In this document: positions 11,960 to 31,585 of the stretch, piece after piece
How the letters are laid out: each line of letters starts with the position of its first letter
Position numbering within the stretch: position 1 is the first letter of the stretch
From: an uncultured Bacilli bacterium
GTDB taxonomy: Bacteria > Bacillota_I > Bacilli_A > RF39 > UBA660
Direction: 5' to 3'
DNA: 64,000 nucleotides
NCBI GenBank assembly: GCA_934167485.1
Contig: CAKPKL010000007.1
Location: 12,186-76,185 of the forward strand
Translations under genes and position numbers: made by a program
Notes under the pieces: model-generated
What the model was told of the DNA's origin: nothing
Database searches by the model: none
What the model saw: the letters and a program-made list of their open reading frames with translations, nothing else

Positions 11960-12199
11960 CTAATTAATTCCTTCTTTTGACATTTTTTGAAGATAATTAA
12001 TATTAATTTTTAAATAATTCACAACTTCATTCATTGGTAACAATTTACTAGGTAATTGATAACCTTTGTTTAACAAACTAATTCTTATTTCACTTTTTAA
12101 TTTAGAAGCACTATTTTTGCCTAAACCAGTAAGCTTTCTTAAATCATTTAAGTCACACCATTGTTTAGAAATCAAATCTAATGTTTCCTTTGCAGTCAT
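11960..12199 (-). CDS. Small DNA-binding protein, excisionase/regulator-like (79 aa)
   Basis: The size, the position upstream of the replication gene, and the motif DLRKLTGLGKNSASKLKSEI...GYQLP resemble the small HTH/DUF3173-like proteins of Firmicute integrative elements. This rests on my recollection only. Confidence 0.4.
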   Translation of the reverse strand: MTAKETLDLISKQWCDLNDLRKLTGLGKNSASKLKSEIRISLLNKGYQLPSKLLPMNEVVNYLKININYLQKMSKEGIN

Positions 12200-13848: not shown

Positions 13849-15312
13849 ATGAATGATAAAACATTAATTGATTATATAAACAACGAAGTTGAAAATGAAT
13901 ATATTGATTTTAAACTTATTCAATACGATTGGTCTAAAACGGAAGAAAAGGAAGATTTTTTAATAGATATACTTAGTATGGCAAATTCTAATTATATAGG
14001 TGATAAATATATAATAACGGGAGTTAAAGTTAAACCTGATGGTGAAAGAATAATAAAAGGTATTGATCCATCTTCTGCTATTGATAGTGCTGATTATCAA
14101 CAATTAGTTACCGAAAATATTGAACCAAGTTTAAATATTGTTTTTAAAATACTTCATTATGATAACAAAGATTTTGGAATTTTTAAAATATCAGATTGTA
14201 ATGACAGGCCATATTTGTTAAAAAAGAAATATGGAAAATATGAAAATGGATATATAAAAGTTAGAAAAGGTTCTAGGAACACGAATATTTCAAGATATAT
14301 ATTAGATTCAATATATAAATCAAAAATACCAAATGAAACATCAGAATTTAAAATAAGTGGATTAATTGATGGAAACATAGATGATAATGTATTTTTGAAT
14401 ACATTTGATTTTTTTCCAAATTTTGAAAATGAAAGAGAAAAAGTATTAAATCTATTCAAAATAATAAACGATTTTAAGATTGACGATATCGAAGGAAGTA
14501 ATATGCAATTACCAAGTTCTCTAAACTTTTTAAAAGATGGACTATTTCCAGCAGAGCCTATTAAAATTGAAGAAGAAATCATTAAAAATATAAAAGAATT
14601 TGCAAATATTATAGAAGAAAAAATAAATGATGAGTTTTTTGAAATTGGGAATACAAGTAAGAAATTTAATGGTATAACTAGTGGCAATTTTGGCCCACAT
14701 ACAAACTATAAATATGTAGGAAGTACTAAATCATTACAAAAATATAATATGATAATACAATTAAATAAAGAAATTAACAGACTTATTGGTTGGGCAGATT
14801 TTTTAGTTTCTATTAAAGATATAAAATTTATACAATTAGCTATAACTGAGATTGGAAATATTGCTGATGAAGAAATACAAGTAAATCTTGAAATACCAAA
14901 TGATGCTTACATTTCTATTGAAGAATTCCCACAAGCGAGTATTGAAATAGCAGAAGAATTTGCTGAAAATTATTCTAGCAAAATGTTTATGCCATATTAT
15001 AATAATGGAATATCAGATTATAGAAAAATGCCACTATCTTCTACGCCACATATTTCAATGCCAATAACAAATCCATTTATAAGTTCTAATATTCAAATGA
15101 TTGATAACATATATGATTTTATTGATTATGATGAAACAAAAAATAAAGATAAGACAATTGTAAATTTTACTATTAAAAATATAAAGGTTGGTGAAACAAT
15201 GGCCTTTCCAGGTAATATATTTTTAAAGAAAAAAGTATCAAAAATACCTTATTCAATAGTTAGTAAAAAATCTAATAAAAAAATGAGTGGTGAAATTATT
15301 ATAAAAGAATAA
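13849..15312 (+). CDS. AlbA_2 (Schlafen-like) DNA-binding-domain protein with an uncharacterised C-terminal region (487 aa)
   Basis: The N-terminal pattern EYIDFKL...FLIDILSMANSNYIGDKYIITGVKVKPDGERIIKGI matches my recollection of the AlbA_2 domain signature. The gene starts 22 nt after the previous one. Confidence 0.55.
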   Translation: MNDKTLIDYINNEVENEYIDFKLIQYDWSKTEEKEDFLIDILSMANSNYIGDKYIITGVKVKPDGERIIKGIDPSSAIDSADYQQLVTENIEPSLNIVFKILHYDNKDFGIFKISDCNDRPYLLKKKYGKYENGYIKVRKGSRNTNISRYILDSIYKSKIPNETSEFKISGLIDGNIDDNVFLNTFDFFPNFENEREKVLNLFKIINDFKIDDIEGSNMQLPSSLNFLKDGLFPAEPIKIEEEIIKNIKEFANIIEEKINDEFFEIGNTSKKFNGITSGNFGPHTNYKYVGSTKSLQKYNMIIQLNKEINRLIGWADFLVSIKDIKFIQLAITEIGNIADEEIQVNLEIPNDAYISIEEFPQASIEIAEEFAENYSSKMFMPYYNNGISDYRKMPLSSTPHISMPITNPFISSNIQMIDNIYDFIDYDETKNKDKTIVNFTIKNIKVGETMAFPGNIFLKKKVSKIPYSIVSKKSNKKMSGEIIIKE

Positions 15313-15316
15313 ATTT

Positions 15317-15335
15317 TAGGTGGCAATTAGGTGGC
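15317..15335 (+). repeat. Arm-type direct repeat pair TAGGTGGC / TAGGTGGC (11-nt register), right end of E2
   Basis: Read directly from the sequence. Confidence 0.55.
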
Positions 15336-15450
15336 AAAATTTTAAATTTTAACAGTAAAATTCAGTTTTTATTATTTTAAAATAGTAAAAAATATAAGTA
15401 AATAAAGGAAATAATAACTTTAAAGTATAAAATAAACTAAATCTTAATTG

Positions 15451-15492
15451 CCCCCTGAAGAGAGCGATTAACTTATGTCGCTCTCATTTTTT
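15451..15492 (+). repeat. Junction repeat C: CCCCCTGAAG, hairpin GAGAGCGA..TCGCTCTC, ATTTTTT
   Basis: Aligned by eye with repeats A, B and D. Confidence 0.7.
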
Positions 15493-15542
15493 GTAGGAAA
15501 TATAAGGGTTTTATCAGTTTGATAATTCTCTAAAAATAGGAT

Positions 15543-15561
15543 TAGGTACCAATTAGGTACC
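15543..15561 (+). repeat. Arm-type direct repeat pair TAGGTACC / TAGGTACC, left end of E3
   Basis: Read directly from the sequence. Nearly identical to 3559-3577, including the trailing ATTTT. Confidence 0.6.
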
Positions 15562-15643
15562 ATTTTCATTTAAAAACATTTTTTATAATATAAATAATTA
15601 GAAAATCTGTAGTATAATGGAATAGACATATAGGAGGTTTATT

Positions 15644-16297
15644 ATGGTTTGTGATTATAAAGAAATTGTTGATGCGATAAATAAAACAAATAATTTTTCA
15701 ATAGGAGACTTTATTAATTCATTGTTATTAGTGTGTTCAATAATAACTATTATATTTTTATTAATTGATAAATATTCAAAAGGTCGTCCTTATTTACAAG
15801 TTTCTATAGAACTGATAAGATCAAGTTTAGCTTGTGTAGTTATAAGAAATGTTGGAGAGGTATCATTGTCGTTGAAAAAGATAACTTTTGATAAAGAATT
15901 TATAGAACAATTGCCAGATTATGCTCAAAAATATTTTAAAGATACTAAAATAAATAATCTATTACTTCATCCAGGATCAAAATGGGTTATGTGCTTCGGT
16001 ACATCAATAAATGATATTTTAAAAAATTATGATAAAAAAGCTGTGCTTATAAAGTATGAATATACAAAATTAAATAGAAAAAAGGTATATAGAGAGGAAT
16101 ATTTAGCAGATTTTGAACAAATATCACATTTTCTTGTTTATATCAGTGAAATAGATGAATTATCTAATGAAGTTGAAAAAAGTACAAATAAGTTATCAAA
16201 AAAACTTACAGAAATTGAAAAAGAAGTTATTAGTTTTAGAAATTTAAATGAAGATTACTTTAGAAATACAATAACACTAAAGAGCAAGAAAAAATAG
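15644..16297 (+). CDS. Hypothetical membrane-anchored protein (217 aa)
   Basis: RBS aggagg. One N-terminal TM helix (LLLVCSIITIIFLLI). The gene lies between the att junction and the integrase. Confidence 0.65.
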   Translation: MVCDYKEIVDAINKTNNFSIGDFINSLLLVCSIITIIFLLIDKYSKGRPYLQVSIELIRSSLACVVIRNVGEVSLSLKKITFDKEFIEQLPDYAQKYFKDTKINNLLLHPGSKWVMCFGTSINDILKNYDKKAVLIKYEYTKLNRKKVYREEYLADFEQISHFLVYISEIDELSNEVEKSTNKLSKKLTEIEKEVISFRNLNEDYFRNTITLKSKKK

Positions 16298-16321
16298 TTA
16301 GGAGCAAACCTAACTTTTTTA
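16296..16321. terminator. Bidirectional terminator AGTTAGG-agcaaa-CCTAACT followed by a T-run, between convergent genes
   Basis: Read directly from the sequence. Confidence 0.6.
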
Positions 16322-17335
16322 TTCTAATTTATCAATTAAATCAACAACTTCATTTAAAGCAGAGTTAAATAGATGTGTATAAGTGTTTAAAGTTTCTTCT
16401 ATTTTAGTATGACCTAAATATTTGGCCACTACAGTTATATTAGCTCCATTATTAACAAGTAGTGATGCACATGAGTGTCGGAAGTCATGGATCCTAATTT
16501 GAGGTACACCAGCTAATTTACAGTTGCGATTTTTTCTTGATGTGATAGTATTACTTGCAACAGGGAAAGCATCACCAATAACAAAGTAATCATCATTGAA
16601 TCCATACTCTTTAGATACCTCATTTTTGAGCATTTTAAGGTTGTTTAAGAGAACTTTATTAAGCGGTAGGGTTCTTATACTACTTTTAGTCTTTGGAGTG
16701 GAGAATTGGAACTCTTTAACCGAACCACCACGATCTGTAATTTGCTTTTTAACAGATAGGGTTTTATTAACAAGATCAACATTTCTCCAAGTCAATCCTC
16801 TAAGTTCACCTTTCCTTAATCCACAGTAATATAATATTTCAAACATAACTTTACTTTGCAAATTATTTTCAACAGAAATAAATTGTTTCCATTGATCATA
16901 AGTAAAATACATCATTTCTTTTGGTATATCAAAAGCACTACTAAACTTAGTCATTTTATTATAAACTTTATTAAGATTAAAATCGTACCATGTCATAGCA
17001 AAGTTTAGTCCTGATTTTAAGAATTTTAATATATCATTTTTATATCGTGTTGAGATATTAGTTTCATTCATTTGCTTTTTCCAATTATCATAGTGATTAA
17101 TATTAAAATCTTTTAGTTTAATATTTAATAAACTTTTTAAATGGATTCTTTTATTACCATAATTATATAGAGTAGTAGGCTTAACCTCAATGGTAGAAGT
17201 TCTATTTTCGATAAATATATCAATCATTTCATCCAATGTTATTTTATCCATATTCTCATGTCTATGTATTTTTAACCTAAATTCAAGCTCTGCATCTTCA
17301 GCTTCTTTTTTTGTGCAATAAAAAAGCATTAACAA
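16319..17335 (-). CDS. Tyrosine recombinase / phage-type integrase lacking most of the N-terminal arm-binding region
   Basis: Catalytic residues are present: LRKGELRGLTW (R), HDFRHSCAS (HxxR), GHTKIEETLNTYTH (H, Y). The ORF starts at ...FYCTKKEAEDAE, which normally lies ~40-50 aa into such integrases. Confidence 0.85.
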   Translation of the reverse strand: MLMLFYCTKKEAEDAELEFRLKIHRHENMDKITLDEMIDIFIENRTSTIEVKPTTLYNYGNKRIHLKSLLNIKLKDFNINHYDNWKKQMNETNISTRYKNDILKFLKSGLNFAMTWYDFNLNKVYNKMTKFSSAFDIPKEMMYFTYDQWKQFISVENNLQSKVMFEILYYCGLRKGELRGLTWRNVDLVNKTLSVKKQITDRGGSVKEFQFSTPKTKSSIRTLPLNKVLLNNLKMLKNEVSKEYGFNDDYFVIGDAFPVASNTITSRKNRNCKLAGVPQIRIHDFRHSCASLLVNNGANITVVAKYLGHTKIEETLNTYTHLFNSALNEVVDLIDKLE

Positions 17336-17338
17336 ATA

Positions 17339-17668
17339 CTAATACTTAATTATTTTAAAATCTAAAGGATCTTCATTGATTATTTCTAAAGAGTATTTTA
17401 TCTTAAGTAATTTAATAACTTCAGCTTTAGCTTTTTTATAATTTTTACACACCAGATTAAAAGTATCAAAAGCAGAATTAAAGTGTTGCTTAAAAGTTGC
17501 TTCCCACATAGCATTTCTATAAAAAGAACTAGCAATATAAAATGCTATAACTTCAGGAATAACATATTCTTCTAAATAACTATCATAGTTTTCATAAAAT
17601 GGGTCAATAACCTTTTCACACTCTTCATCACTTATATCTTCATCAGTACATTTTCTTAACATAGACAC
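17339..17668 (-). CDS. Hypothetical acidic protein (109 aa)
   Basis: ORF with RBS ggaggtg. It ends in a TAG 3 codons before the integrase ORF, in the same frame. Confidence 0.5.
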   Translation of the reverse strand: MSMLRKCTDEDISDEECEKVIDPFYENYDSYLEEYVIPEVIAFYIASSFYRNAMWEATFKQHFNSAFDTFNLVCKNYKKAKAEVIKLLKIKYSLEIINEDPLDFKIIKY

Positions 17669-17832
17669 CTCCGTATGTATTAATCACTTAAAAAACGTTT
17701 TTTTACAATAGTTTTAATTCAAAAATTGAAAATTACATTGTTATTATGCGCAAAACATCATAATTTGTCGAAAAAATGTGATATAATTGATATTGAATAT
17801 GTGGAGTATAATGGGAAGTAAGAGGTAGAAGT

Positions 17833-19788
17833 ATGGATAATAATGTAAGAGCTGAATTAATAAAAATATTAGCAAGTGGAAATAGTATTCCAGAAACATA
17901 TAAAGATATTATTTTTCCAACTATAAATAAGGAATATGAATTATCTTATGCAGGAAAAATGAGAGCCGAAGATGTATTATCTTGCAATGATGGTGTTTAT
18001 TCTATGCCACTGCAAATTGAAAAATCATTTAAAACAGATGAATCAGAGTGGAATAACATAATATGTTTTGGGGACAATTTACAATTGTTAAAAACAATTA
18101 ATGAGAATGTTGATCCAATCATAAAAGACAAAGTAAAAGGTAAAGTAAAATTAATATATATAGATCCACCATTTGCAACTGAAGATGAGTTTAAAAATAA
18201 AGATGGTGCTAAGGCATATAATGATAAAGTAAAGGGTGCTGATTTTATTGAATTTATGCGTAGAAGATTAATTCTAGCAAAAGAAATATTAGCGGATGAT
18301 GGTTCAATATTTGTTCATTTGGATATGAAAATGAGTAATTATATAAAAATAATATTAGATGAGGTTTTTGGTAAAAATAACCTATTAAATGAGATTATTT
18401 GGCATTTTAGAACATATCAAGGGCAAACAGACAAGTATTATCCAAGAAAGCATAATGTTATATATTGGTATAAAAAGAAAAATAATCCTACTTTTAAATT
18501 AGATTATGATGATGATTATGAAGATACTGTTGATGCTGAAAGATGGAGAAAATATGTTGTTAATGGTAATGAAATACGTGGTAATAAATTTCCAAAATCT
18601 GATTCTAGATTTAAGGGATATTATGATAGATTTGTTAAAGAACACGGAAGAAAGCCAAATAAAGATGACATAATAATGAAAATAAATGGATATGTTGTAG
18701 ATGATGTTTGGGTTGACATAAATGCGGTAGACCCTAAAGACAAAATTGAAAAAACAGGATATCCGACTCAAAAACCTGAACAATTGTTAAGAAGAATAAT
18801 TGAAACAACTACAGAAAAGGGAGATTTGATATTTGATTTCTTTGGGGGATCTGGTACAACTTCAGCTGTTGCTGAAAAATTAGGAAGACGATGGATAACG
18901 TGCGATTTAGGAAAGTTATCATATTATACAATCCAAAAAAGAATTATAAATATAGGAAATTCAAAAGACTTGTTTGATCCAACAAAAAAATATAATAAAA
19001 ATCCAAGTAATTTTATAACTTGTCAATTAGGATTGTATGATTTAAATTCAGTAATTAATCTTCCATGGGAACAATATGTGGAATTTGTTTCTGATTTGTT
19101 TGAAATTAAGTTAAAAAAGAATAAGGTAAATGGAATCGAATTTGATGGAACAAAAAATTTAGAACCAACTTTAATATGGGATTTTAATAAGTATAAAGAT
19201 GTTATAATTGATGAAAATTATATTAATAACTTAAATCTTAATTTAGCAAATAAGTATGAAGGTAATATTTATATAGTAGCTCCAGCAAATTGTTTTGATT
19301 TCATTGAGGATTACTATGAAATTAATAATAATAGATACTACTTTTTGAAAATACCTTATCAGATTATAAGAGAATTGCATAAAGTGCCTTTCAAAAAGAT
19401 ATTACAGCCTAATAGTAAAAATAATGTTAATAGTATTGATGAATCTATTGGTTTTCATTTCATTAAGCAACCTACTGTTAAGAGTAAAGTTACTAAAAAG
19501 GACAATGAATTATTAATTTCACTTAAAGAGTTTAAGAGTTATTATTATAAGGATGAAGACGGAAAAATATTAAAAAATTTTGAAACACTATCTGCAATGT
19601 TTGTAGATTATGATTATCATGAACCATTTATTATTGACGATGTTTTTTTTGCAGATGAATTTAAAAAAGAATCTGACAATCTCGTAATAAAAGTTAACAC
19701 CAAAAAAATTGGCAAAAAAATAATGCTAATTTATGTTGATATTTATGGTAATGAATTTAAAGAAATTATTCAGTTAGGTGGTAAATAA
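17833..19788 (+). CDS. mod: Type III R-M DNA methyltransferase (Mod), beta-class N6A/N4C
   Basis: Motif IV LIYIDPPF lies before motif I FDFFGGSGTTSAVAEKLGRRWI. The length (651 aa) and the adjacent res gene fit. Confidence 0.85.
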   Translation: MDNNVRAELIKILASGNSIPETYKDIIFPTINKEYELSYAGKMRAEDVLSCNDGVYSMPLQIEKSFKTDESEWNNIICFGDNLQLLKTINENVDPIIKDKVKGKVKLIYIDPPFATEDEFKNKDGAKAYNDKVKGADFIEFMRRRLILAKEILADDGSIFVHLDMKMSNYIKIILDEVFGKNNLLNEIIWHFRTYQGQTDKYYPRKHNVIYWYKKKNNPTFKLDYDDDYEDTVDAERWRKYVVNGNEIRGNKFPKSDSRFKGYYDRFVKEHGRKPNKDDIIMKINGYVVDDVWVDINAVDPKDKIEKTGYPTQKPEQLLRRIIETTTEKGDLIFDFFGGSGTTSAVAEKLGRRWITCDLGKLSYYTIQKRIINIGNSKDLFDPTKKYNKNPSNFITCQLGLYDLNSVINLPWEQYVEFVSDLFEIKLKKNKVNGIEFDGTKNLEPTLIWDFNKYKDVIIDENYINNLNLNLANKYEGNIYIVAPANCFDFIEDYYEINNNRYYFLKIPYQIIRELHKVPFKKILQPNSKNNVNSIDESIGFHFIKQPTVKSKVTKKDNELLISLKEFKSYYYKDEDGKILKNFETLSAMFVDYDYHEPFIIDDVFFADEFKKESDNLVIKVNTKKIGKKIMLIYVDIYGNEFKEIIQLGGK

Positions 19789-19789
19789 A

Positions 19790-22375
19790 ATGAATAACGA
19801 TGCAAATTTAATATTTAATTTAGATGATTTAATTTTAAAGGTTAATCATTATTACGATACATCAAAATATAATTTAGAAGTTTGGGAAAACTATTTGAAC
19901 ATATTAACAGAAGGAAGAACATATCAAAAGGAAGCTATTTTATCGGCTATTTATTACTTAATAGATGCAAATGTTCCAGATTTGAAGACTCTTGCATATA
20001 ATAATTTTAATCAAAATCAATATTTAAAAAGCAAATATAATAATAACTTCTATGAGTTTGAATCTAATCTACAACTTCCTAGCAAAAAATATGCTACCAT
20101 TGATTTGGCAACAGGAACAGGTAAGTCATACGTTCTGTATGGTATCTCTCAAATACTTTTAGGAATAGGTTTTGTGGAAAGAGTTTTATTATTATGCCCA
20201 TCAACAACAATAGAATATGAGTTAACAAAGAAATTCAAAGAATTAAGTCAAAATAATGTGTTGTCTGATTTAATACCAGAGGAAGCTATTATAAAAACAC
20301 CAAGAATAGTAGATGCTAATGTTTCTGTAAAATTAGGAGATATATGTATTGAAAACATTCATTCGGTATACGAAAACACAGGGTCTTCTATTGATGATAG
20401 TTTTACAGGTACAGGAATAAATACTCTTGTATTAAATGATGAAGCACACCATATATTTAATAATGTTAGTTATTCAGGTAGAAATGAAACAAGTGAATTA
20501 AAGAAATGGAAAGAGTTTTTGTTAAACGACAAATACAACTTTCAATATGTGATTGGAACTACTGGAACGGCATATATTGAAAATGAGTATTTTTGTGATG
20601 TTATATATAGATATTCATTAAACAAAGCAATAGAAGATAGGATTGTAAAAAACATTAATTATGTATTGAAGGACGATGAAATAAGTGAAAATGAAAAATT
20701 CACTAAAATATATCAAAATCATAGTGATTATAAAAAATTGTATTCTAAAATAAAGCCTATAACTATTTTTGTAACAAAAGATAAACAAAATTGTAATAGT
20801 GTTACAAATAAATTGAAAGATTATTTGAAAAAGTTTGAAAACATTACAGATGAAGAAGCTGATAAAAAAGTATTAATAGTTACATCAGCTCCTGAACACA
20901 AAAATAATGTAGCAATACTAAGAAGTGTTGATAATAGTGATAATGATGTTGAATGGATAGTATCTGTATCGATGTTAACAGAAGGCTGGGATGTAAAAAA
21001 TGTATTTCAAATTGTTCCATGGGAAGATCGTGCTTTCAATTCTAAATTATTAATTTCACAAGTTTTAGGAAGAGGTTTAAGAATTCCTAAAGAATACCAA
21101 ACTCCACAACCAGTTGTAACAATATTCAATCATGCGTCATGGACTAAAAATATCAGAAGTTTTGTTGACCAAATATTAGAGATATCAGATAGAATAACTT
21201 CAAATATAATTATAGAAGGAAAAAGAGCTAAATATAATTTTGATTTATATAATATCAATTATGAGAAGGCACTTATAGAAAAAGAACATAAAAAGAATAA
21301 AACCTTTGATTATAGCAGAATGCAAAAAGAAGGAATAAAACTTGAATCTCAGGTATTGAAATATAACAAAGTTGTTGAATTCACAGACGTTTTAGAAAAC
21401 AAAATTATTGAAAAACAATTTGAAATCAACGAAGAAACTTATACGGTTGATGAGGTTGTTGACAAGATATATGATGAGTTTCAACTGAGAGAATGGGAAG
21501 GCATTACTTTAAAACTTGGTTTAGAGAAATATACAAAAAATAATTTACCGCCTAGAGATGAGATTAAGAAAATTGTTTTAAATTCAATGAAAAAAGTTGG
21601 AATAGATGGAAAACTTTTAACAATAAAAAACAGAAATTCAATATTAAAAGCATTTAATACTCTTTTAAGACAAAATGGTAAAACTGTAGAATATATTAAT
21701 ATTGAGAAAGATTTAGAAATTGTTAAAACTAATGTAATGGCTTCTCAAAGTACAAATATTCTTAATTTAAAAAGAGGAGAAACAACAATTTTTCATACAA
21801 ATGAGTGGAAACAAGAAGTTGATAATAAAAACTTAATTGTTTTTGAAAAGGTACTTGATGATGGAACAATGCCACGACAATCTACGCATGAGGTAAATAT
21901 CAATAATTTCAAAACTCCTGTTGATTTAGTAATTGTAAATGGATCTCCAGAGAGAAAATTTGTATCACAACTAATTGAAAATAATAATGCTAACATTATT
22001 GACTCGTGGATTAAATCTAGAGATAAGAATTTTTATTCAATTGATTATACTTGGAGAAAAAACGGGCATCAAATGTCAAATTCAGCATTCAATCCTGATT
22101 TTTTCATAAAACTAACTGAAGATGGTATTGATACTATTGTTGTAGTTGAAATTAAGGATGATGGTGATGATAGTGATGAAAATAAGGCTAAGTATAGATA
22201 TGCTTTAGATCACTTTGAAAATTTAAATGAAAAGTTAGAAAATAGTGGTATAAATCAAAAATACATTTTTCACTTCTTAAGTCCAATATCATATAATGCA
22301 TTTTTTGAATACTTAGGAAACCATAAAATAGAACAATTTAAATGTGATTTAGAAAACTTATTAGAAGAAAATTAG
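19790..22375 (+). CDS. res: Type III restriction enzyme Res subunit (helicase plus C-terminal PD-ExK nuclease)
   Basis: DLATGTGKS (motif I), LNDEAHH (DEAH), TEGWDV, and the C-terminal NPDFFIKL...VVVEIKDD. The ATG at 19790 follows the mod stop by 1 nt, with RBS aggtgg. Confidence 0.85.
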   Translation: MNNDANLIFNLDDLILKVNHYYDTSKYNLEVWENYLNILTEGRTYQKEAILSAIYYLIDANVPDLKTLAYNNFNQNQYLKSKYNNNFYEFESNLQLPSKKYATIDLATGTGKSYVLYGISQILLGIGFVERVLLLCPSTTIEYELTKKFKELSQNNVLSDLIPEEAIIKTPRIVDANVSVKLGDICIENIHSVYENTGSSIDDSFTGTGINTLVLNDEAHHIFNNVSYSGRNETSELKKWKEFLLNDKYNFQYVIGTTGTAYIENEYFCDVIYRYSLNKAIEDRIVKNINYVLKDDEISENEKFTKIYQNHSDYKKLYSKIKPITIFVTKDKQNCNSVTNKLKDYLKKFENITDEEADKKVLIVTSAPEHKNNVAILRSVDNSDNDVEWIVSVSMLTEGWDVKNVFQIVPWEDRAFNSKLLISQVLGRGLRIPKEYQTPQPVVTIFNHASWTKNIRSFVDQILEISDRITSNIIIEGKRAKYNFDLYNINYEKALIEKEHKKNKTFDYSRMQKEGIKLESQVLKYNKVVEFTDVLENKIIEKQFEINEETYTVDEVVDKIYDEFQLREWEGITLKLGLEKYTKNNLPPRDEIKKIVLNSMKKVGIDGKLLTIKNRNSILKAFNTLLRQNGKTVEYINIEKDLEIVKTNVMASQSTNILNLKRGETTIFHTNEWKQEVDNKNLIVFEKVLDDGTMPRQSTHEVNINNFKTPVDLVIVNGSPERKFVSQLIENNNANIIDSWIKSRDKNFYSIDYTWRKNGHQMSNSAFNPDFFIKLTEDGIDTIVVVEIKDDGDDSDENKAKYRYALDHFENLNEKLENSGINQKYIFHFLSPISYNAFFEYLGNHKIEQFKCDLENLLEEN

Positions 22376-22487
22376 AAAAGGCATTTTATGTCTTTTTTTA
22401 TCATTTTAAATTAGAATAATTATATAAAAAAGAAATATTTTGGATATTTGTGATATAATTATAATTAAAGGAATTGGAGATGTAATT

Positions 22488-23119
22488 ATGTCCTTTGATT
22501 ATAAAAAAGAATATAAAGAATTTTATATGCCTAAGAATAAACCATGTATAGTTGAAATACCTAAAATGAATTACATTGCAGTACGAGGTAATGGTAATCC
22601 AAATGAAGAAAATGATGATTATCAGAATACTATTGGATTATTATCTGGAATTGCTTATACAATAAAAATGATTTCTAAAGGAACACACAAAATAAATGGC
22701 TTTTTTGAATATGTTGTTCCACCACTTGAAGGATTCTGGTGGCAAGATGGATTAAAAGAAAGCATTGATTATAATAATAAAGGTGCTATGCATTTTATAT
22801 CAATTATTAGATTACTAGATTTTGTTACTAAGGAAGACTTTGATTGTGCAATTGAAGAAGCGACTAAAAAGAAAAAATGGATTTTTCTAGAGTAGAATTT
22901 TTAACTAATGATGAAGGTGTATGTGTTCAATGTATGCATATTTGAAGTTATGATGATGAACCAGCCACAGTTGAATTAATGCACAATTTTATGAAAGAAA
23001 ATGGATATGAATTAGATATAACAGATAAAAGATATCATCATGAAATATATTTAAGTGATCTACGAAAATGTGATGTAAGTAAATTAAAGACTGTAATAAG
23101 ACATCCAATAAGGAAGTAG
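22488..23119 (+). pseudogene. GyrI-like small-molecule-binding domain gene, disrupted by a frameshift and an in-frame TGA
   Basis: The frame breaks in the A-run near 22870. The +1 frame continues MDFSRVEFLTNDEGVCVQCMHI*SYDDEPATVELMHNFMKENGYELDITDKRYHHEIYLSD...RHPIRK*, which is the expected C-terminal half. Confidence 0.7.
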
Positions 23120-23127
23120 GTGTTGGC

Positions 23128-23679
23128 GTGAATTATAGTTTTAAAATTTTTCAAAAAAATGCTGTAATAAGATTTTTAGCATTAGATAAGTATAATTATA
23201 TAATGGAAAATATTTATAAATGCGATATAAGTAAAGATGGTGAATTTCAAAAGGTATTTAATGCATTTTATCGTGTAAGAAGAGATGAAAAATGGCGAAA
23301 AGTATTTTATACTTACTTTGAATCAATTAAAGATAAAAAGAATATAACATTTGAAGAAATAGTTAGTTACATGTACAAGAAAACAGGAAATATTGAAGCA
23401 TCTTTTTGTAGTAAACTTTTATCTACACTAAATCCTAATATGCCAATCTGGGATCAATATGTATTAGCTAATTTAGATTTGGATGTAAAAGAGAAAACAA
23501 AAGTAGAAAAATTAAAAGATACTATAGCAGTTTATAATAAAATAATTGAAATAGAAAATAACAAACTTAAACAAAAAGATATCCAGCAAGCTATAAAAGA
23601 TTTTAAAGAACACTTTCCTGAATATAATTTATCAGATATAAAAATATTGGATTATATACTATGGAATAGTAGAAATTAA
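23128..23679 (+). CDS. Hypothetical protein (183 aa, GTG start)
   Basis: ORF only. No motif recognised. Confidence 0.5.
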   Translation: MNYSFKIFQKNAVIRFLALDKYNYIMENIYKCDISKDGEFQKVFNAFYRVRRDEKWRKVFYTYFESIKDKKNITFEEIVSYMYKKTGNIEASFCSKLLSTLNPNMPIWDQYVLANLDLDVKEKTKVEKLKDTIAVYNKIIEIENNKLKQKDIQQAIKDFKEHFPEYNLSDIKILDYILWNSRN

Positions 23680-23835
23680 GAACTAAAAATGAATATAGAT
23701 GCCAAGTTTGGTGTTATATATTAATTTAAAAACACACTAATAAATACCATTTTATTAAGGTAAAAACAAAAATATAACGGCTCTAAAAGGTCGTTTTTAA
23801 AAGAAATTAACATACAAAACATTTGTTTGTTTGAT

Positions 23836-23877
23836 CCCCCTAAAGAGAACGTAGTGATATATTCTCATTTTGTTTAT
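23836..23877 (+). repeat. Junction repeat D (rightmost, probably the displaced ancestral copy): CCCCCTAAAG, hairpin GAGAA..TTCTC, ATTTTGTTTAT
   Basis: Aligned by eye with repeats A to C. Confidence 0.6.
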
Positions 23878-24185
23878 ATTAAAGGGTTTCATATTTGTTA
23901 AGTAATTTTAGTTACACAAGTGTTAAATAAATTTTATATTACCATTAACCAATAATTTTGAAATAGAAAAATATTTTATTAATCCCAAATTTAAAATAAT
24001 AAATGTATTAATAGTTTTTATAATATTTTATGTGAAATGTTTGTGAATTTTAGCACTCATCGCTTGACTTTGCCAATCTAAAGTGGTAACATTATATACG
24101 TAAGGTTGAGATACTTACAGGTATTAAATTTATATGTATGTGCTACCTTAGGGTGTCAACACATAAAGAAAGGAAGTAGATTTGT

Positions 24186-24602
24186 ATGATGCTAGTACCT
24201 AAGAGTAATTTTGATTTGTTTGATGATATTTTTGGAGATCCATTCTTTATTAAAAATGAGAATAAGGTAATGAAGACTGATATTAGAGAAAGAGATAATA
24301 GTTATATTATTGATGTTGATTTACCAGGATTCAATAAAGATGATATTAAGATCGATGTAACTGATGGATATCTAACTATAAATGCAAAAATGAGTTCTGA
24401 AGACAAAGAAGAAAAAAATGAAAAATATGTAAGAAGGGAAAGATATTTTGGTGAATGTTCTCGTAGTTTCTATGTAGGTGAGAATGTTGAATCAGAAAAT
24501 ATTAAAGCTTCGTTTAAAAACGGTATTTTAAGTTTGGAAATTCCAAAAGTTGATGAAAAAGAAAAATTACCTGAAAAGAAATATATTGAAATTAGTGAAT
24601 AA
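24186..24602 (+). CDS. Small heat-shock protein, Hsp20/alpha-crystallin family
   Basis: Alpha-crystallin domain pattern DIRERDNSYIIDVDLPGFNKDDIKIDV...GILSLEIPK. Confidence 0.9.
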   Translation: MMLVPKSNFDLFDDIFGDPFFIKNENKVMKTDIRERDNSYIIDVDLPGFNKDDIKIDVTDGYLTINAKMSSEDKEEKNEKYVRRERYFGECSRSFYVGENVESENIKASFKNGILSLEIPKVDEKEKLPEKKYIEISE

Positions 24603-24633
24603 AAGGATAAAGATGGGCTTTATCCTTTTTTTT
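24603..24633 (+). terminator. Intrinsic terminator of hsp20 (AAGGATAAAG-atggg-CTTTATCCTT followed by T8)
   Basis: Read directly from the sequence. Confidence 0.8.
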
Positions 24634-24634
24634 G

Positions 24635-24663
24635 TTGACAATATTTGGGTTTTGGTGTAGAAT
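24635..24663 (+). promoter_or_regulatory. Sigma-A-type promoter TTGACA, 17 nt, TAGAAT, driving the 24691-30343 operon
   Basis: Hexamers and spacing read directly from the sequence. Confidence 0.6.
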
Positions 24664-24690
24664 ATCTTGAGGTTTTAGGGGGATAAAATA

Positions 24691-27600
24691 ATGTTGATAA
24701 CTAGTAAAAATATATTAAGAATATTAGAAGATGATTCTATACCACTTTCTGAGAAAGATGATATTGTAGAAAAAAATAAATATGTTTTAGAACACTCATT
24801 TAATAAGTTAACCAATGAACAAATAATTAACTATCTTTTAAATTCTAAAATACCAAAAAGTGCTAAAAGAGTACTATCAAATAATATTGATTCATTAAAA
24901 GAAAAATCAAAAAATAAAAGAAGATTATTTATAAAAAAATTATTTGAAGATAGTATTAATTTTTGGACTCTTAATTATTACGATAAAAAAGATAAAAAGA
25001 ATCTTATAAGATTAGATAACATCAAAAAAGAATTTGTAAAACAAAATAAAGTAAGAGAAAGCGACTTATATCATGATTACATTCCAAAATCAATTAAAGA
25101 AATTATAATAAGCGACATTTATAAAGGTGATTTAAATAAATTAATTTGTGAGTCTACTTTACCTATTAAATTAAAAAAAGAAATAATAGATATTGTATAC
25201 GATGATAACAATTGTGTTGATTTATTGACTGATTTAAAAAATGATGATCTTAAAAATTATATTCTTCATACTAAATTTAACAGTATAAATGGTATAGCAT
25301 TCGCTATAGCTTCTCTTAGATTAGATGATGAATGTAAAAAGTATATTGCTAAAAATAGGATAAATGTATATAACATATATGAAATAGCTATACAATTTTC
25401 ATATATTACTCAATATAAACAGTTTATAATTGAAAATTGTTATCCTATTCTTCAAGAATGTATAAAGAAAATACCTAGAAGAAAACTTTTTAGGAAATTA
25501 TATGATTCTCGTAATAGGGATTTTATGTCTGATTTGATTGTGGAGCAAAGAGAAGAAGATATAAATAAACAGATGAAAAAAATTATATTTCCATTTTCAT
25601 TTAATGAAAAGGTACTTAGTAGTCAAAATGAAAAATTAATTAAACTTGCAATAAAAAAACATCCATACAAACTTATTTTAACAATTTTATTTTCAAATGG
25701 GGAAGAGACATTGGAATGGCTAAACATTGATAGTATATCAAATGAATTTAAGAATTTTATTGTAAAAATAAGTTCTCCAAAAATAAATAGGACTATAAAA
25801 AAAATTAAATCTAATTATATAATTTATAAATTTATGACAAAAGATAGTAGTTTACCAAAGCAACTTCAAGATAGAATTTTAAATATACGTAAAAATTCAA
25901 TAGTGCAGCAAATAGATAAATTAGATGATCGAAATGTAGCCCATTTATTGTCTGATAATTTATTTATAGATTCAATAAGGGATTTAATAATAAAACTTAA
26001 AATTAATGAAAATAATATAATAGACATTTTATCAAATATTGAAGATGAAAATGTAATGTGTAATATTATTGAAGAAAAAAATGATATAATAAAAAAAATA
26101 TTAAATAGTTTAGATAATGACCAATTATTTAAATTAAATAAGATATATAATGGTAAATTAAAAAATAATATAATTTTTAGTAATGAGACTTATTTTATTT
26201 CTAGATTAAAGCAAGTTGATGAAGTAACTCTATATAATAAGTTAGATGATTTAAAAACCGATATGATGATTAAGTATGTTATTCTAAAAATTATGGGTAT
26301 GGAAGAAGCAGATATAATTGATTGCTTAATGCTTATTAATATTATTGATAGTAGAACGGTTATTTATAATTATAAAGTGATAAAAGAATTTATTGAAAAT
26401 TGTAATGTAAGCTTTTCAGCATTTGTACAATATGGATCTGGAACTGAAAAACATAGAGAATGGTTATCAAAAATTTTAAATATAATAAATGATGATAAAT
26501 CAAAAGACTTTATTAAAGTAAAAGAATATATGTTTAATAATTTTTATGGCGATGACAAATATAAAGAAAATATGGTATCTACAATATCTAATTTTTTAGA
26601 ACTTTTAGATAATTTTTCAGACAATTATGATGTACTTATTTCATTAGTTTCTAATAATAGAAAACTAATTCCAAAAGATAGATTAAATTTGCAATTTATA
26701 TTTAATAATAAACTCTCTTGTGAAAATATAGATCAAATATCTGATATGAGAATAAATTTATATGAAAAATATAAAAAAATAATTAATGATCCAAATTCTA
26801 GTTTAAATAGTCTAAAACAAGTATGTCATGAATTGATTTTTAAACAAGCTGTAGATACATTGAGTAGTATAGGCGGAGTTAGGACTTTAGTTATGTTAAA
26901 AAATGAATATAACGAATCTAGCGATATTTGCAAGTTAATAGATGAATTAATAGTTTATTCAAAAATAATAGAGAAATTAAGTACTACGAAAGATGAAATA
27001 GGACTTAGAAATTCATTGAAATATATATTTGGTAATGATTATAATGATTTGATGAGATATGAAAATATTTTTTCACAATTTGATAAAAAAGTTTTAAAAT
27101 TATTTGAACTTGATTCAAAATATAATTTGACACACATAGAAGACGCACGCAAAATTGATGGTACACTTGATTTAAAATTATGTTCTAAATATGGTGGCGA
27201 AGTTTTTGATTTTTCTGATAAAAATTATTGTTTGTATGCACATGTATTAAGTTTTGAGGAAAAAGTAGAAAATTTATTAAGAGGAAAATCTGATGGTTAT
27301 AGTAATTTTATATCAGTAAGTCCTATAAGTTATTTAGGACAAAAATATTACTATGACTATTCTAATATGATTTTAGCGTTTGATAATATTCCAAGAGGTA
27401 GTTTTATATGTAGTTCTGTTTCTAATATGGGAAGTAACAGTGACATAAAACATAATTCTTTTGAAGTTAGAAATGTATGTAGAACTCAAAGGGGAATATT
27501 AGAAACGAGTGCGGTTACAAAAAATAATTCAGAAGCACTATTATATAGAGAGGGGTTAAAACCTTGTGGAATTATCCTAATTAATGGAAAAATTCCGACA

Positions 27601-28653
27601 GAGAAAGAACTTTTATATCATAAAAAATATAATTTACCATTTATAATAACACAACCTAAGATGAAACCAATTGATAATCCTAGTATGGTTTTTAAACCTA
27701 ATATAGAAGAATTTGATAATGAACTATATACAAATGATTTAAATAAAATTTTAAATATATTAGATTCTAATGTGAAAATAAATAAAGAAAATGATATATA
27801 TACAGGAAGGGAAGTAGCTCTTATTACAGATTGTCATTCTATGTATGAACCAACAATAGAAGTATTGGAAGATACAAGAAAAAGAGGTATATCAGAGATA
27901 TATTCTTTAGGTGACAATGTTGGTCTTGGTCCAAACCCTGAAGAAGTATTTGATATGCTTGAAGAATATGGTGTTAAAACAATTTCAGGAAATAGTGAAT
28001 ATTATAATACTCTTGGTATAGAGCCTTTTGATTATTTTGATAATCAAAAGATAGAAAATCAAGAATGGACTTACAATAAACTTGGTACATATAGAATAAA
28101 TAAAATGAAATTGTATCAACCATCTTTAGATATATGTGTGGGAAATAAAAAGATAGCGCTTTGTCATTTTGCTAATGATATTAGGTGGGATTATCCAGTA
28201 CATAGCACTTGGTCATATCAAGGAAATTATAAATATGGAACTGCTTCACAACAATTTTTATATACAAATAGTGATGAAGCTTTAAGAAAAATAGATAATT
28301 GTATTACAAGTCATAAAAAAACAGATAAATTTATAAAAGGATATTTATCAGCAAAACAAGAACCATTATTTAATGGTAAATTAGTAACAGATTATGATGC
28401 AGTATTTCAAGGACATGTACATTTTGATATGAAGGATAAATTAAATAATACCGATATATATACATTAAGAGCTGTTGGAATGGGGTATGAGGAAGATCCT
28501 AAAAATACTGCATGTTATTATATTTTAAAAGAGAAGAAAGATGGTACATTTGATGTAGAAAAGAAATTGATAAAATTTAATAAAAATTTATTACTATCAA
28601 ATGTAAAATCAAGTGGAATACCACATAAAGAAAAAATATTAAATTTTTTATAA
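24691..28653 (+). CDS. Giant protein (1320 aa): ~1000 aa of helical repeats plus a C-terminal calcineurin-like metallophosphoesterase domain
   Basis: The full MPE motif set is present: ITDCHS (D-x-H), LGDNVGLG (GDxxG), SGNSEYY (GN-x-E), LCHF, QGHVHFD (GHxH). I recognise no motif in the N-terminal region. Confidence 0.8.
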   Translation: MLITSKNILRILEDDSIPLSEKDDIVEKNKYVLEHSFNKLTNEQIINYLLNSKIPKSAKRVLSNNIDSLKEKSKNKRRLFIKKLFEDSINFWTLNYYDKKDKKNLIRLDNIKKEFVKQNKVRESDLYHDYIPKSIKEIIISDIYKGDLNKLICESTLPIKLKKEIIDIVYDDNNCVDLLTDLKNDDLKNYILHTKFNSINGIAFAIASLRLDDECKKYIAKNRINVYNIYEIAIQFSYITQYKQFIIENCYPILQECIKKIPRRKLFRKLYDSRNRDFMSDLIVEQREEDINKQMKKIIFPFSFNEKVLSSQNEKLIKLAIKKHPYKLILTILFSNGEETLEWLNIDSISNEFKNFIVKISSPKINRTIKKIKSNYIIYKFMTKDSSLPKQLQDRILNIRKNSIVQQIDKLDDRNVAHLLSDNLFIDSIRDLIIKLKINENNIIDILSNIEDENVMCNIIEEKNDIIKKILNSLDNDQLFKLNKIYNGKLKNNIIFSNETYFISRLKQVDEVTLYNKLDDLKTDMMIKYVILKIMGMEEADIIDCLMLINIIDSRTVIYNYKVIKEFIENCNVSFSAFVQYGSGTEKHREWLSKILNIINDDKSKDFIKVKEYMFNNFYGDDKYKENMVSTISNFLELLDNFSDNYDVLISLVSNNRKLIPKDRLNLQFIFNNKLSCENIDQISDMRINLYEKYKKIINDPNSSLNSLKQVCHELIFKQAVDTLSSIGGVRTLVMLKNEYNESSDICKLIDELIVYSKIIEKLSTTKDEIGLRNSLKYIFGNDYNDLMRYENIFSQFDKKVLKLFELDSKYNLTHIEDARKIDGTLDLKLCSKYGGEVFDFSDKNYCLYAHVLSFEEKVENLLRGKSDGYSNFISVSPISYLGQKYYYDYSNMILAFDNIPRGSFICSSVSNMGSNSDIKHNSFEVRNVCRTQRGILETSAVTKNNSEALLYREGLKPCGIILINGKIPTEKELLYHKKYNLPFIITQPKMKPIDNPSMVFKPNIEEFDNELYTNDLNKILNILDSNVKINKENDIYTGREVALITDCHSMYEPTIEVLEDTRKRGISEIYSLGDNVGLGPNPEEVFDMLEEYGVKTISGNSEYYNTLGIEPFDYFDNQKIENQEWTYNKLGTYRINKMKLYQPSLDICVGNKKIALCHFANDIRWDYPVHSTWSYQGNYKYGTASQQFLYTNSDEALRKIDNCITSHKKTDKFIKGYLSAKQEPLFNGKLVTDYDAVFQGHVHFDMKDKLNNTDIYTLRAVGMGYEEDPKNTACYYILKEKKDGTFDVEKKLIKFNKNLLLSNVKSSGIPHKEKILNFL

Positions 28654-28663
28654 GAGGAGATTT

Positions 28664-30343
28664 ATGAATAAAATAGATAATATAATGTATTATTTTGATG
28701 GAAATTTTGCTTTTGCTTTATTTATATCAGATTTTCTTTATAATGAAGAAAAAAATTCATATTATATATGTAAAAAAGAATATATAAATGCAGCAAAGGT
28801 TGGTTGTATTAGTAATATTCTTTTAGCTATTAAAGAAGATTTAATTGAAAAAAAAGAAAATGTAAATTATGAGTCAAGAATATTTTTAGATGAATTAGAA
28901 AGTTCAGTAGAAATTTTAGCTACTAAAACAAAAAATGGTTACTCCATAAACAATTATGAATTTAGTGATGCTCCAAGTCTAGTAGCTTTTCTTAGGAATA
29001 AAATCGCACATGGAGATTTTACACTAGATTTATCACATACAAGAATAATAATAAATAGTGATGGGAAAGAGATTATTATAAATATAAATAAGCTTAGTTC
29101 ATTTATTAATCACGCAGCTATAAATTATTCTAGAAGAATACAAAAAAAAGAGTATACAAGAAGTTTTTTTATAACAGAGAAACAGGATAAAAAAAGAACA
29201 AAACCTATAACAAGTAAGGATGAATTAAAAAAATTTATAAAGACTTATTATGAAATTAGATTTGATCTTAAAAGAATTGATGGAAAAGATGTAGAAAAGT
29301 ATATAGCTAATGAATTTGAATATGTAATAAATAGTTTTAAAAAAGATTTAGATTTAAAAAAATTAATGAATTTTAAAAATAAGATAAAAAGTGAATATTA
29401 CTTTGATTGGAAAAGAATAAAAGTTGATAGTAAAAAATTAGATGCTGCATCAGAAAGCATTATAAATATAATTCCAACAGACATTAATTATAAGATTCAA
29501 GTTTATTCTATATCGCAAGAGTTAATAGGATGGTTAAATCCTCTTTATCAAAAATATAATTCAATTTTAGCAAGTTCAAATAATTTATTATTATTAGATG
29601 CAATTTATAAAATAGGTACTTATAACAAAAAAGAATTATTAGGATATATTGTTACAAATCATGGTAATTTATATTTTAATCAAGACTATATGGCCAGTAC
29701 ATCTATTAGTTTATTTAATGCATTATTTTCATATCCCTTTGACGATATATATAAAAATACACATGAGTTTACAAATGAGAACAATACTGGGTTAGATTAT
29801 TCCTTATTAGATTTGAGATATATGAAAGTAGAAAAACATACAATTGAAACCCCTATAAAAAATGAACTTATAACAAGTAAATTAGCAAAACAAAAAGAAT
29901 TGCAAAAATTGAAAGAAAAGTATGAAGAATTATCTATTAGTCTAAAAAATGTAAAAGATAAAAATAATTCAAATGCAATCAAAAAAATAAATAAATTAAT
30001 ATATAATATAGATAAGTGTATTGATGAAAAAATAAATGAAATAAAATCTATAGATAAAAGGCTATTTGAGGTATTAGAATATATAAATAACAATAAAAAT
30101 TATTTAAAGAATAAAGCTATTATAGAGGGTATTAGAAATTCTATCGCACATGGAAATTATAGAGTAGAATTAGACGGAAATATGGAAAATTCTAAAATGA
30201 TTTTTGAAGATATATATAATAATGAACTTACATTTAAGGGTACAATATCAATTCAAAAGTTTTTACAAATGATAATTTATAATTGTACATTTATAAATGA
30301 TTTTATAAAACAAAAACAAAAAATATCTTTTAAAGTTAAGTAG
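28664..30343 (+). CDS. Tandem HEPN-like protein (559 aa) with two RNxxAHG motifs
   Basis: LRNKIAHGDF (R111/H116, nt 28994-29011) and IRNSIAHGNY (R491/H496, nt 30134-30151). Both fit the HEPN Rx4-6H signature. A helical/coiled-coil spacer lies between them. RBS gaggag. Confidence 0.7.
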   Translation: MNKIDNIMYYFDGNFAFALFISDFLYNEEKNSYYICKKEYINAAKVGCISNILLAIKEDLIEKKENVNYESRIFLDELESSVEILATKTKNGYSINNYEFSDAPSLVAFLRNKIAHGDFTLDLSHTRIIINSDGKEIIININKLSSFINHAAINYSRRIQKKEYTRSFFITEKQDKKRTKPITSKDELKKFIKTYYEIRFDLKRIDGKDVEKYIANEFEYVINSFKKDLDLKKLMNFKNKIKSEYYFDWKRIKVDSKKLDAASESIINIIPTDINYKIQVYSISQELIGWLNPLYQKYNSILASSNNLLLLDAIYKIGTYNKKELLGYIVTNHGNLYFNQDYMASTSISLFNALFSYPFDDIYKNTHEFTNENNTGLDYSLLDLRYMKVEKHTIETPIKNELITSKLAKQKELQKLKEKYEELSISLKNVKDKNNSNAIKKINKLIYNIDKCIDEKINEIKSIDKRLFEVLEYINNNKNYLKNKAIIEGIRNSIAHGNYRVELDGNMENSKMIFEDIYNNELTFKGTISIQKFLQMIIYNCTFINDFIKQKQKISFKVK

Positions 30344-30392
30344 AATTAATTGAATAAAAGTGTTATACTATAAATAGTAATGAGGTGAAGTT

Positions 30393-31499
30393 ATGAAGAA
30401 AGTTGTAATAGGCATGAGTGGCGGAGTAGATTCATCTGTAGCAGCTATAAAATTAAAAGAGCAAGGATATGAAGTAATAGGACTTTTTATGCGTAATTGG
30501 GATTCTTTTACAGATGGTGAGTATGAAGGTGCCCCTGTATCAAGTAAAGGAATTTGTCCACAAGAGGTTGATTATAACGACGCTAAAGCTGTATGTGATA
30601 AAATTGGTATTCCACTTTATAGAAAAGATTTTATAAAAGAATATTGGGATTATGTTTTTACATACTTTCTTGATGAACTAAAAAAAGGTAGGACACCTAA
30701 TCCAGATATAATGTGTAATAAATATATAAAATTTGATATGTTTGCTAAAGAAGCACAAAAATTAGGAGCAGATTATATTGCTACAGGACATTATGCAAGA
30801 ATAGAAAATGGAAAATTATTAAAAGCAGTTGATGAAAACAAAGACCAAACTTATTTTTTATCTCAGGTAAGTCGTGAACAATTAAAAAATGTATTATTTC
30901 CAATAGGCGATATGTTAAAACCTGATGTAAGAAAAATAGCAGAAAAATATGATTTAATAACGGCAGAAAAAAAAGATTCAACTGGTATTTGTTTTATAGG
31001 AGAGAGAAATTTTAATAATTTTTTAAAAAATTATTTACCTAATACTCCAGGTGATGTCGTAAACATTGATACAAATGAAGTAATAGGTAAACATATAGGA
31101 CTTATGTATTATACTATAGGGCAAAGAAGAGGTCTTGATATAGGTGGTACAAAAGATAGAATGTTTGTAGTAGGAAAAGATTTAGAAAAAAATATTTTAT
31201 ATATTTGTATTGGTGATGATAATGATTATTTAATATCAGATTCTTGTATAATTGAAGATATAAATTATTTGGAAAAAGAAAAAATAACAAAATGTAATGC
31301 TAAGTTTAGATATAGACAAAAGGATATACCAGTAGAATTAGAATGGTTAGATAATAATCAAATATTAGTTAAGTATCCACAAGGTGTTAAAAGAGTAACA
31401 CCAGGACAAGCTTGTGTGCTTTATGATGGTGTAGAGTGCCTTGGTGGAGGTATTATTAAAGAAGTAAGAAAAAATGGCAAAAAACTTTGGTATTTATAA
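30393..31499 (+). CDS. mnmA: tRNA-specific 2-thiouridylase MnmA
   Basis: PP-loop GMSGGVDSS and conserved blocks (NPDIMCN, ATGHYAR, DQTYFL). Confidence 0.92.
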
Positions 31500-31585
31500 A
31501 AAAGTTTTTGTCTTTTTTTTGGGCATATATACATTCTAAAAATTTAAATATTCATATAAATATAATAGCGAATATGGAGGAATAT

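Follow-up and report, generated by a model that had tools for sequence, protein, structure and literature searches.

Two adjacent orphan gene families from an uncultured gut Bacilli bacterium: a probable tandem-HEPN-like protein and a giant repeat protein ending in a metallophosphoesterase

Cas13, the effector of type VI CRISPR systems, is a single polypeptide in which two Rx4H HEPN motifs form one composite RNase site. The abortive-infection proteins AbiD/AbiF (Abi_2) and ApeA are single-gene HEPN proteins that carry a noncatalytic N-terminal or middle region. In HEPN domains, which are four-helix up-and-down bundles, the Rx4-6H motif ends helix 3, ahead of the loop leading into helix 4, and the R is followed by a polar N, D or H residue; a β-hairpin after the motif has been noted for the HEPN domain of Csx1, and families of the pEK499_p136 and MAE_28990/MAE_18760 type (PF18736, PF18737) are typically found beside restriction–modification (R-M), ART/Macro or Pgl genes (Anantharaman et al., 2013; PMC3710099). 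Here, we describe two neighbouring open reading frames, ORF1 and ORF2, in a stretch of 64,000 nucleotides (the window; positions 12,186 to 76,185 of the forward strand of contig CAKPKL010000007.1, GenBank assembly GCA_934167485.1). The DNA comes from an uncultured bacterium of the human gut with a very low GC content, which records of metagenome-assembled genomes (MAGs) label as 'Bacilli' or 'Tenericutes'. On balance, ORF1 and ORF2 are best explained as evolutionarily independent, lineage-specific chromosomal genes that probably lie side by side in the window strain by chance. Their positions, numbered from the first letter of the window, are as follows.

24691..28653, + strand: ORF1, 1320 amino acids (aa), made up of helical repeats at the N-terminus, a conserved domain in the middle and a metallophosphoesterase at the C-terminus

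28664..30343, + strand: ORF2, 559 aa, belonging to an unnamed family with two Rx4H (HEPN-like) motifs

The two genes are separated by 10 nt on the same strand, and both are preceded by purine-rich ribosome-binding sites at good spacing from the start codon (AGGGGG at 24677..24682 for ORF1 and GAGGAG at 28654..28659 for ORF2). An earlier reading made from the sequence alone (the sequence-only reading) had described this arrangement, and the coordinates and ribosome-binding sites bear it out. ORF2 resembles Cas13 in having two Rx4H motifs in one chain that could, by analogy, form one site, but it is only 559 aa long and there is no Cas13 structure among the Foldseek matches of its model; no CRISPR array is evident in the gene maps, although no search aimed at arrays or crRNA-binding lobes was made. 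Like the stand-alone HEPN abortive-infection proteins it mostly occurs alone, although its dual-HEPN layout differs from their one dimerizing HEPN domain and Abi_2 gave a single weak match. Among profiles, those of the pEK499_p136 and MAE families match ORF2 segments best and most often. These families have in common with ORF2 an R-N-x-x-A-H motif that ends a helix and in which the R is followed by a polar residue, whereas ORF2 has two modules per chain, a middle domain of ~240 aa and a long helical hairpin, and lies among housekeeping genes rather than beside the R-M, ART/Macro or Pgl genes described for those families.

The sequence-only reading had taken ORF1 and ORF2 to be a paired module, an RNA-cleaving effector with a very large sensor or scaffold phosphoesterase, and had named a lack of co-occurrence in other genomes as one of the findings that would speak against it. 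The genes are in fact mostly found apart. A scan of one genome per GTDB species with an ORF2 profile gave 76 loci (77 counting the window), nearly all of them in MAGs of uncultured gut 'Bacilli'/'Tenericutes' such as Mycoplasma sp. CAG:472, Firmicutes bacterium CAG:460 and Clostridium sp. CAG:628. As judged by tblastn and ORF clustering, an ORF1 homologue lies within 10 kb in ten of the 77 loci, leaving 67 with none within that distance. ORF1 is followed directly by ORF2 in the same orientation at four loci (the window and those designated L016, L017/L030 and L068), while at six (L057, L061, L070, L071, L081 and L084) ORF2 is followed by an S41 peptidase and then ORF1; on a tree of ORF2, these linked loci, with their two gene orders, come from no more than two clades. 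When metagenome contigs were scanned with an ORF1 profile, ORF2 was found beside ORF1 at one of the 80 loci obtained (L094) and not at the other 79. ORF1 usually follows obg and is itself followed by a HAD phosphatase gene, a GTPase gene and mutL, or it lies in some other stable block of housekeeping genes; ORF2 is found next to varied housekeeping genes (recG, alr, PFOR and a P-type ATPase). A conserved alternative partner upstream of ORF2 was also considered and rejected: at loci without ORF1 the genes upstream encode, among others, a Dam methylase, an XRE regulator, a DUF1848-like protein, a phosphodiesterase and proteins of 343 and 220 aa, and these genes are related neither to ORF1 nor among themselves.

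The comparison of the hsp20–mnmA interval in relatives, proposed along with the module, separates the two genes within one species. The conspecific contig L012, whose flanks share 98% identity with those of the window (98.4% on the downstream side of ORF2), has the order hsp20–ORF1–mnmA; its ORF2 is deleted, with only the last ~26 nt left before the mnmA leader (L012 5120..5210 against window 28650..30345). L094 shares its ORF1 allele with L012 and has, in addition, an ORF2 that is 99% identical to that of the window. The loss of ORF2 where ORF1 stays, and the large number of ORF2 genes with no ORF1 nearby, argue against an obligate toxin–antidote or sensor–effector pairing.

Two observations weigh against independence of the genes. 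A spacing of 10–12 nt in the same orientation recurs in the window, L016, L017/L030 and L068, with ORF2 proteins that are 42–70% identical between the window, L016 and L017; and ORF1 and ORF2 are also near each other in the second ORF2 clade, where the linkage persists in six genomes around the S41 peptidase. Facultative coupling of ORF1 and ORF2 in some lineages is nevertheless considered improbable.

Two further observations concern the arrangement of these loci. In the ORF2 clade nearest to the window (L005 7287..7949, L018 9272..9934, L019 and L020) a 220–247-aa protein, rather than ORF1, is encoded between hsp20 and ORF2; it shows a glycine loop of kinase-like type (GSGSEGVCY...AYK) and matches nothing in Pfam. 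L064 encodes a 1437-aa relative of ORF1 (14168..18481) 5 kb downstream of an ORF2 homologue, with a match confined to ORF1 residues 558–1190, so that the termini may differ.

ORF2 belongs to a large family whose members go unnamed in public sources. Searches with the full-length protein gave no significant match in Pfam, NCBIfam or PADLOC, and only coiled-coil noise among PDB sequences. The family comprises more than 493 clusters at 90% identity and at least 332 clusters at 50% identity (E<=1e-3), and its length is uniform at ~550 aa, with nearly all of the 332 representatives at 540–600 aa. The AlphaFold model is confident (predicted local distance difference test, pLDDT, 86.9; predicted template-modelling score 0.84) and shows an internally duplicated helical module, the two copies of which are separated by a middle alpha/beta region and a long hairpin of helices.

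28775..29143, + strand: N-terminal HEPN-like module of ORF2, aa ~38-160, with the motif R111-N-K-I-A-H116-G at 28994..29014

29969..30340, + strand: C-terminal HEPN-like module of ORF2, aa ~436-559, with the motif R491-N-S-I-A-H496-G at 30134..30154

The two modules align with each other in hhalign (94% probability, E 1e-7), which indicates an internal duplication. Both RNxxAHG motifs are where the sequence-only reading had placed them, and they are near-invariant in the family: R111/H116 and R491/H496 are unchanged in a 17-sequence alignment, 109 of 116 full-length cluster representatives retain both Rx4H motifs, nearly always in the form RNxx[A/S]HG, and the R and H residues remain near-invariant in proteins down to ~25% identity.

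The confinement of the family to one bacterial lineage, its uniform length and architecture, its stable synteny within genus-level groups, its housekeeping neighbours and the lack of any association of ORF2 with mobile elements would all suit a vertically inherited housekeeping nuclease for RNA processing or turnover in reduced-genome Bacilli, rather than a conflict gene. Such a role is unlikely, as ORF2 has been lost in a conspecific strain, its genomic position varies between clades and its closest match among species-representative genomes is only 45% identical, from which it follows that the representative of the window's species either lacks ORF2 or is absent from the collection. The presence of tandem duplicated ORF2 paralogues in L019 (10001..13288), L038, L053 and L054 also counts against it; in L053 and L054 the duplicates are followed by two genes of the Amidoligase_2 family.

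The assignment of the ORF2 modules to the HEPN fold was assessed with profiles and with the predicted structure. A Pfam scan of 43 trimmed N- and C-segments from diverse family members returned HEPN families as the only recurrent matches, all of them below threshold.

pEK499_p136: 13 of 43 segments, best E 1.3e-5

HEPN_MAE_28990: 11 of 43 segments, best E 9e-4

HEPN_RiboL-PSP: 5 of 43 segments, best E 1.1e-3

HEPN_LA2681: 2 of 43 segments, best E 0.016

Abi_2: 1 of 43 segments, best E 0.023

The C-segment of the window's own ORF2 matches pEK499_p136 at E 0.0018 (18.5 bits against a cut-off of 26.6 bits), N-segments of four out of ten family members match HEPN families below threshold, and precomputed database annotation includes faint or weak PF18736 matches on many ORF2 homologues. 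In the AlphaFold model each motif ends a predicted helix (103-115 and 478-495) and is followed by a three-stranded beta insert, a small meander, and then a long helix. The model thus agrees with the published description of HEPN domains (PMC3710099) in the location of the motif at a helix end, the N after the R and a beta insert like that of Csx1; both motifs conform to the Rx4-6H pattern with a polar residue after the R. Several results point the other way. No HEPN profile reached the Pfam gathering score with full-length ORF2 or with any of the 43 segments, the N-segment of the window's ORF2 gave no HEPN match in Pfam, and a Foldseek search of the whole model against the PDB and BFVD returned nothing at E<0.1 and no HEPN structure, its matches being limited to coiled-coil or helical proteins. 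These are the grounds for the alternative that the RNxxAHG segments are not HEPN active sites and that ORF2 is a non-nuclease, such as a structural or regulatory coiled-coil protein with a duplicated motif for binding or folding. The three-stranded insert, which is atypical for HEPN domains except Csx1 (PMC3710099), would also fit this alternative, but near-invariance of the R and H residues in distant relatives, the N after the R at a helix end and the exclusively HEPN nature of the recurrent Pfam families make it quite unlikely. The tandem-HEPN-like character that the sequence-only reading had given to ORF2 is therefore retained as probable from the motifs and the model: the conserved motifs, the homologous modules and the recurrence of HEPN matches uphold it, while the sub-threshold scores and the Foldseek result do not.

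The C-terminus of ORF1 is a genuine calcineurin-type metallophosphoesterase with all of its metal ligands intact.

27793..28590, + strand: calcineurin-like metallophosphoesterase domain of ORF1 (Pfam PF00149, invariant motifs, Foldseek)

27829..27837, 27910..27915, 27988..27993, 28165..28167 and 28411..28422: phosphoesterase motifs DxH, GD, GN, H and GHxH of ORF1, respectively

These motifs, which the sequence-only reading had listed in full, are confirmed at the same coordinates: D1047-x-H1049, G1074-D1075, G1100-N1101, H1159 and G1241-H-x-H1244 are invariant in an alignment of eight ORF1 family members, and the isolated C-terminal 320 aa score 30.5 bits against Pfam Metallophos PF00149 (cut-off 21.5 bits). 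In an AlphaFold model of residues 560–1320 (mean pLDDT of 67.6), the phosphoesterase part has SapH (3qfm), an Ap4A hydrolase/phosphodiesterase from streptococci, as its top Foldseek match (E 6e-8, TM score 0.72–0.75), with further matches to 2gju (PH1004), 1nnw and 3rqz, all four at a probability of 1.0. SapH/Spr1479 (3QFM), PH1004 (2GJU) and YfcE/MJ0936-type enzymes are the best structural matches overall (E 6e-8 to 3e-7; TM 0.68–0.75 normalized to the target) and share the full metal-ligand motif set. They are stand-alone proteins of ~250 aa, whereas the ORF1 domain, which is ~15% identical to them, is fused to ~1030 aa of repeats and conserved domain. Stand-alone phosphoesterases of ~290 aa that are 48% identical to the ORF1 domain do exist (L170 1376..2233, L171 8001..8858 and L173 8001..8879), which suggests that ORF1 arose by fusion of a free-standing enzyme with the repeat region.

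The sequence-only reading had likened this domain to the phosphatase module of Pnkp. Both belong to the calcineurin-type phosphoesterases and could in principle act on RNA ends that carry a 2',3'-cyclic phosphate. However, lambda-phosphatase-like folds rank only 46th in the Foldseek search, which weakens the analogy; in the model, the fold class resembles the binuclear SapH/YfcE type and not the lambda-phosphatase-like Pnkp module. Searches of ORF1 and ORF2 against Pfam and NCBIfam gave none of the other parts of Pnkp–Hen1 RNA repair (kinase P-loop, ligase/adenylyltransferase domain, Hen1 methyltransferase partner), and the neighbours of ORF1–ORF2 are hsp20 and mnmA.

Comparison with known defence systems, as had been suggested for both proteins, gave no match to a defence model. 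ORF1 matches nothing in PADLOC-DB v2, for ORF2 there is only a marginal RTasHEPN match (E 0.013 over 17 residues), and neither protein matches PHROGs; membership of a known defence system was rejected on these grounds. No relatives of ORF2 were found in IMG/VR viral contigs, GenBank phages or PLSDB plasmids, so that a mobile origin of ORF2 was rejected as well, and the plasmid matches to the C-terminal part of ORF1 are only generic metallophosphoesterases. A dedicated two-gene defence or toxin–antidote module, with ORF2 as the HEPN RNase effector and ORF1 as a sensor or scaffold whose phosphoesterase heals or regulates 2',3'-cyclic phosphate ends, might draw on the recurrent spacing and linkage described above, on ORF1 repeats that evolve fast, as sensor domains do, and on a type III R-M hotspot 2 kb upstream, but it is very unlikely given these searches, the SapH/YfcE-like fold and the absence of a kinase or ligase module, and it is already largely refuted by the distribution of the two genes, including the clean deletion of ORF2 in a conspecific strain and the restriction of adjacency to two clades.

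With ORF1 and ORF2 taken as independent genes, a role can be proposed for each. The two ORF2 modules would be divergent HEPN domains and would together build a single intramolecular RNase site that needs no metal, as in Cas13; ORF2 would act on its own, with the middle region gating its activity, and might serve in conditional RNA cleavage during a stress response or in phage defence. ORF1 would hydrolyse a nucleotide-type phosphodiester or pyrophosphate, for example Ap4A or a 2',3'-cyclic nucleotide, independently of ORF2. A more far-reaching proposal is that ORF2 represents a new class of dual-HEPN RNases, compact, single-chain, CRISPR-independent and specific to uncultured gut Bacilli, self-gated by the middle domain and coupled to ORF1 in some lineages as a facultative sensor–effector, with the hypervariable repeats sensing an invader and the phosphoesterase processing a nucleotide signal or RNA ends; we regard this as highly doubtful.

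The observations made from the sequence alone were correct and its reading of the domains was largely right, while a novel two-gene defence or toxin–antidote module is not supported. The main practical result is thus a negative one: adjacency in one genome is not sufficient to catalogue a pair of genes as a new defence system. What is left standing is two orphan, lineage-specific families, namely ORF2, probably a mostly stand-alone, single-chain dual-HEPN protein, and the giant repeat protein ORF1 with its SapH-type phosphoesterase. Should ORF2 prove to be an active RNase, the HEPN repertoire gains a dual-HEPN family that has gone unannotated, with at least 332 clusters at 50% identity and confined to the poorly studied uncultured gut Bacilli; outside Cas13, the presence of two HEPN motifs in a chain this short would also be rare. 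A second orphan family, of ~1300 aa, is defined by ORF1, whose strongly conserved domain was placed neither by profile searches nor by AlphaFold.

This domain lies between the phosphoesterase and the N-terminal repeats of ORF1.

24691..27180, + strand: helical-repeat region of ORF1, aa 1 to ~830, from self hhalign and helix prediction; poorly conserved across the family

27193..27660, + strand: conserved middle domain of ORF1, aa ~835-990, non-repeat, of unplaced fold and function

Self profile alignment (hhalign) of residues 1–560 gives off-diagonal matches at 98% probability, and residues 560–830 are predicted to be all-helical (AlphaFold, pLDDT 80-90). The sequence-only reading had assigned ~1000 aa to helical repeats; the N-terminus is indeed repetitive and helical, but residues ~835–990 form a separate, conserved non-repeat domain. 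It has 33 invariant columns in a 12-sequence alignment and, the phosphoesterase aside, no part of ORF1 is more conserved. Its pLDDT in AlphaFold is below 45, and a search of its profile against 5.8 billion proteins returned only fragments of the same family. Among PDB sequences there is a weak DRTGG-like stretch (GIILxGGRxPxxEEL...NLPFIxTQ, E 0.02), and single, weak SLOG matches were obtained at E 0.07-0.17; both DRTGG and SLOG are nucleotide-binding motifs.

The repeat and middle regions also vary between strains. The window and L094 are 98-100% identical over 12.7 kb, except at ORF1 codons ~100-1000 (window ~24800..27800), where nucleotide identity falls to 64-90% with no gaps; the phosphoesterase domain is spared. 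In sliding comparisons this segment has a synonymous divergence (dS) of 0.3-0.8 and a ratio of nonsynonymous to synonymous divergence (dN/dS) of 0.2-0.6, and its substitution spectrum is symmetric. A diversity-generating retroelement was rejected as the source of the hypervariability because of the symmetric spectrum, the high dS and a dN/dS below 1. As judged from the same features of the alignment, the segment appears to be a recombined divergent allele under relaxed constraint rather than a product of targeted hypermutation.

The signals around the two genes, and the gene that follows them, are located as follows.

24601..24629, + strand: intrinsic-terminator-like hairpin of hsp20 followed by a T run, the sole terminator-like site in 23500..31500

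24635..24663, + strand: sigma-70-like promoter TTGACA-17-TAGAAT, 11/12 match, plausibly positioned

30393..31499, + strand: mnmA, 49 nt 3' of ORF2

The hairpin and the promoter-like site are present where the sequence-only reading had described a terminator followed directly by a strong promoter; however, promoter-like matches are not enriched in this DNA of ~24% GC (65 observed against 76 expected). A site with an equal score (27016..27045, TTGAAA-18-TATAAT, 11/12) lies within ORF1 itself, from which it follows that such matches mean little in AT-rich DNA. The two genes had also been described as a self-contained operon. No terminator-like site was found between ORF2 and mnmA in the scan of 23500..31500, and the ORF1–ORF2 unit is therefore not demonstrably self-contained. 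Transcription would probably start at the promoter after the hsp20 terminator and is likely to run on into mnmA, which, from the layout of the sequence, is probably co-transcribed with ORF2.

The flanks had been read as housekeeping genes without mobile-element scars, which does not hold on the left side.

16319..17335, − strand: tyrosine integrase, upstream of hsp20

17833..22375: type III R-M mod/res gene pair, just upstream of hsp20

ORF1 and ORF2 show no compositional anomaly that would point to recent transfer: their GC content (0.20-0.26) matches that of the flanks. In a comparison of window 16319..23900 with L094 1..7230, the same site in L094 is occupied by a different type III R-M pair with only 28% identity, while the surrounding sequence is 98-99% identical between the two. 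From this alignment the region looks like a strain-variable R-M hotspot that ends ~260 nt before hsp20.

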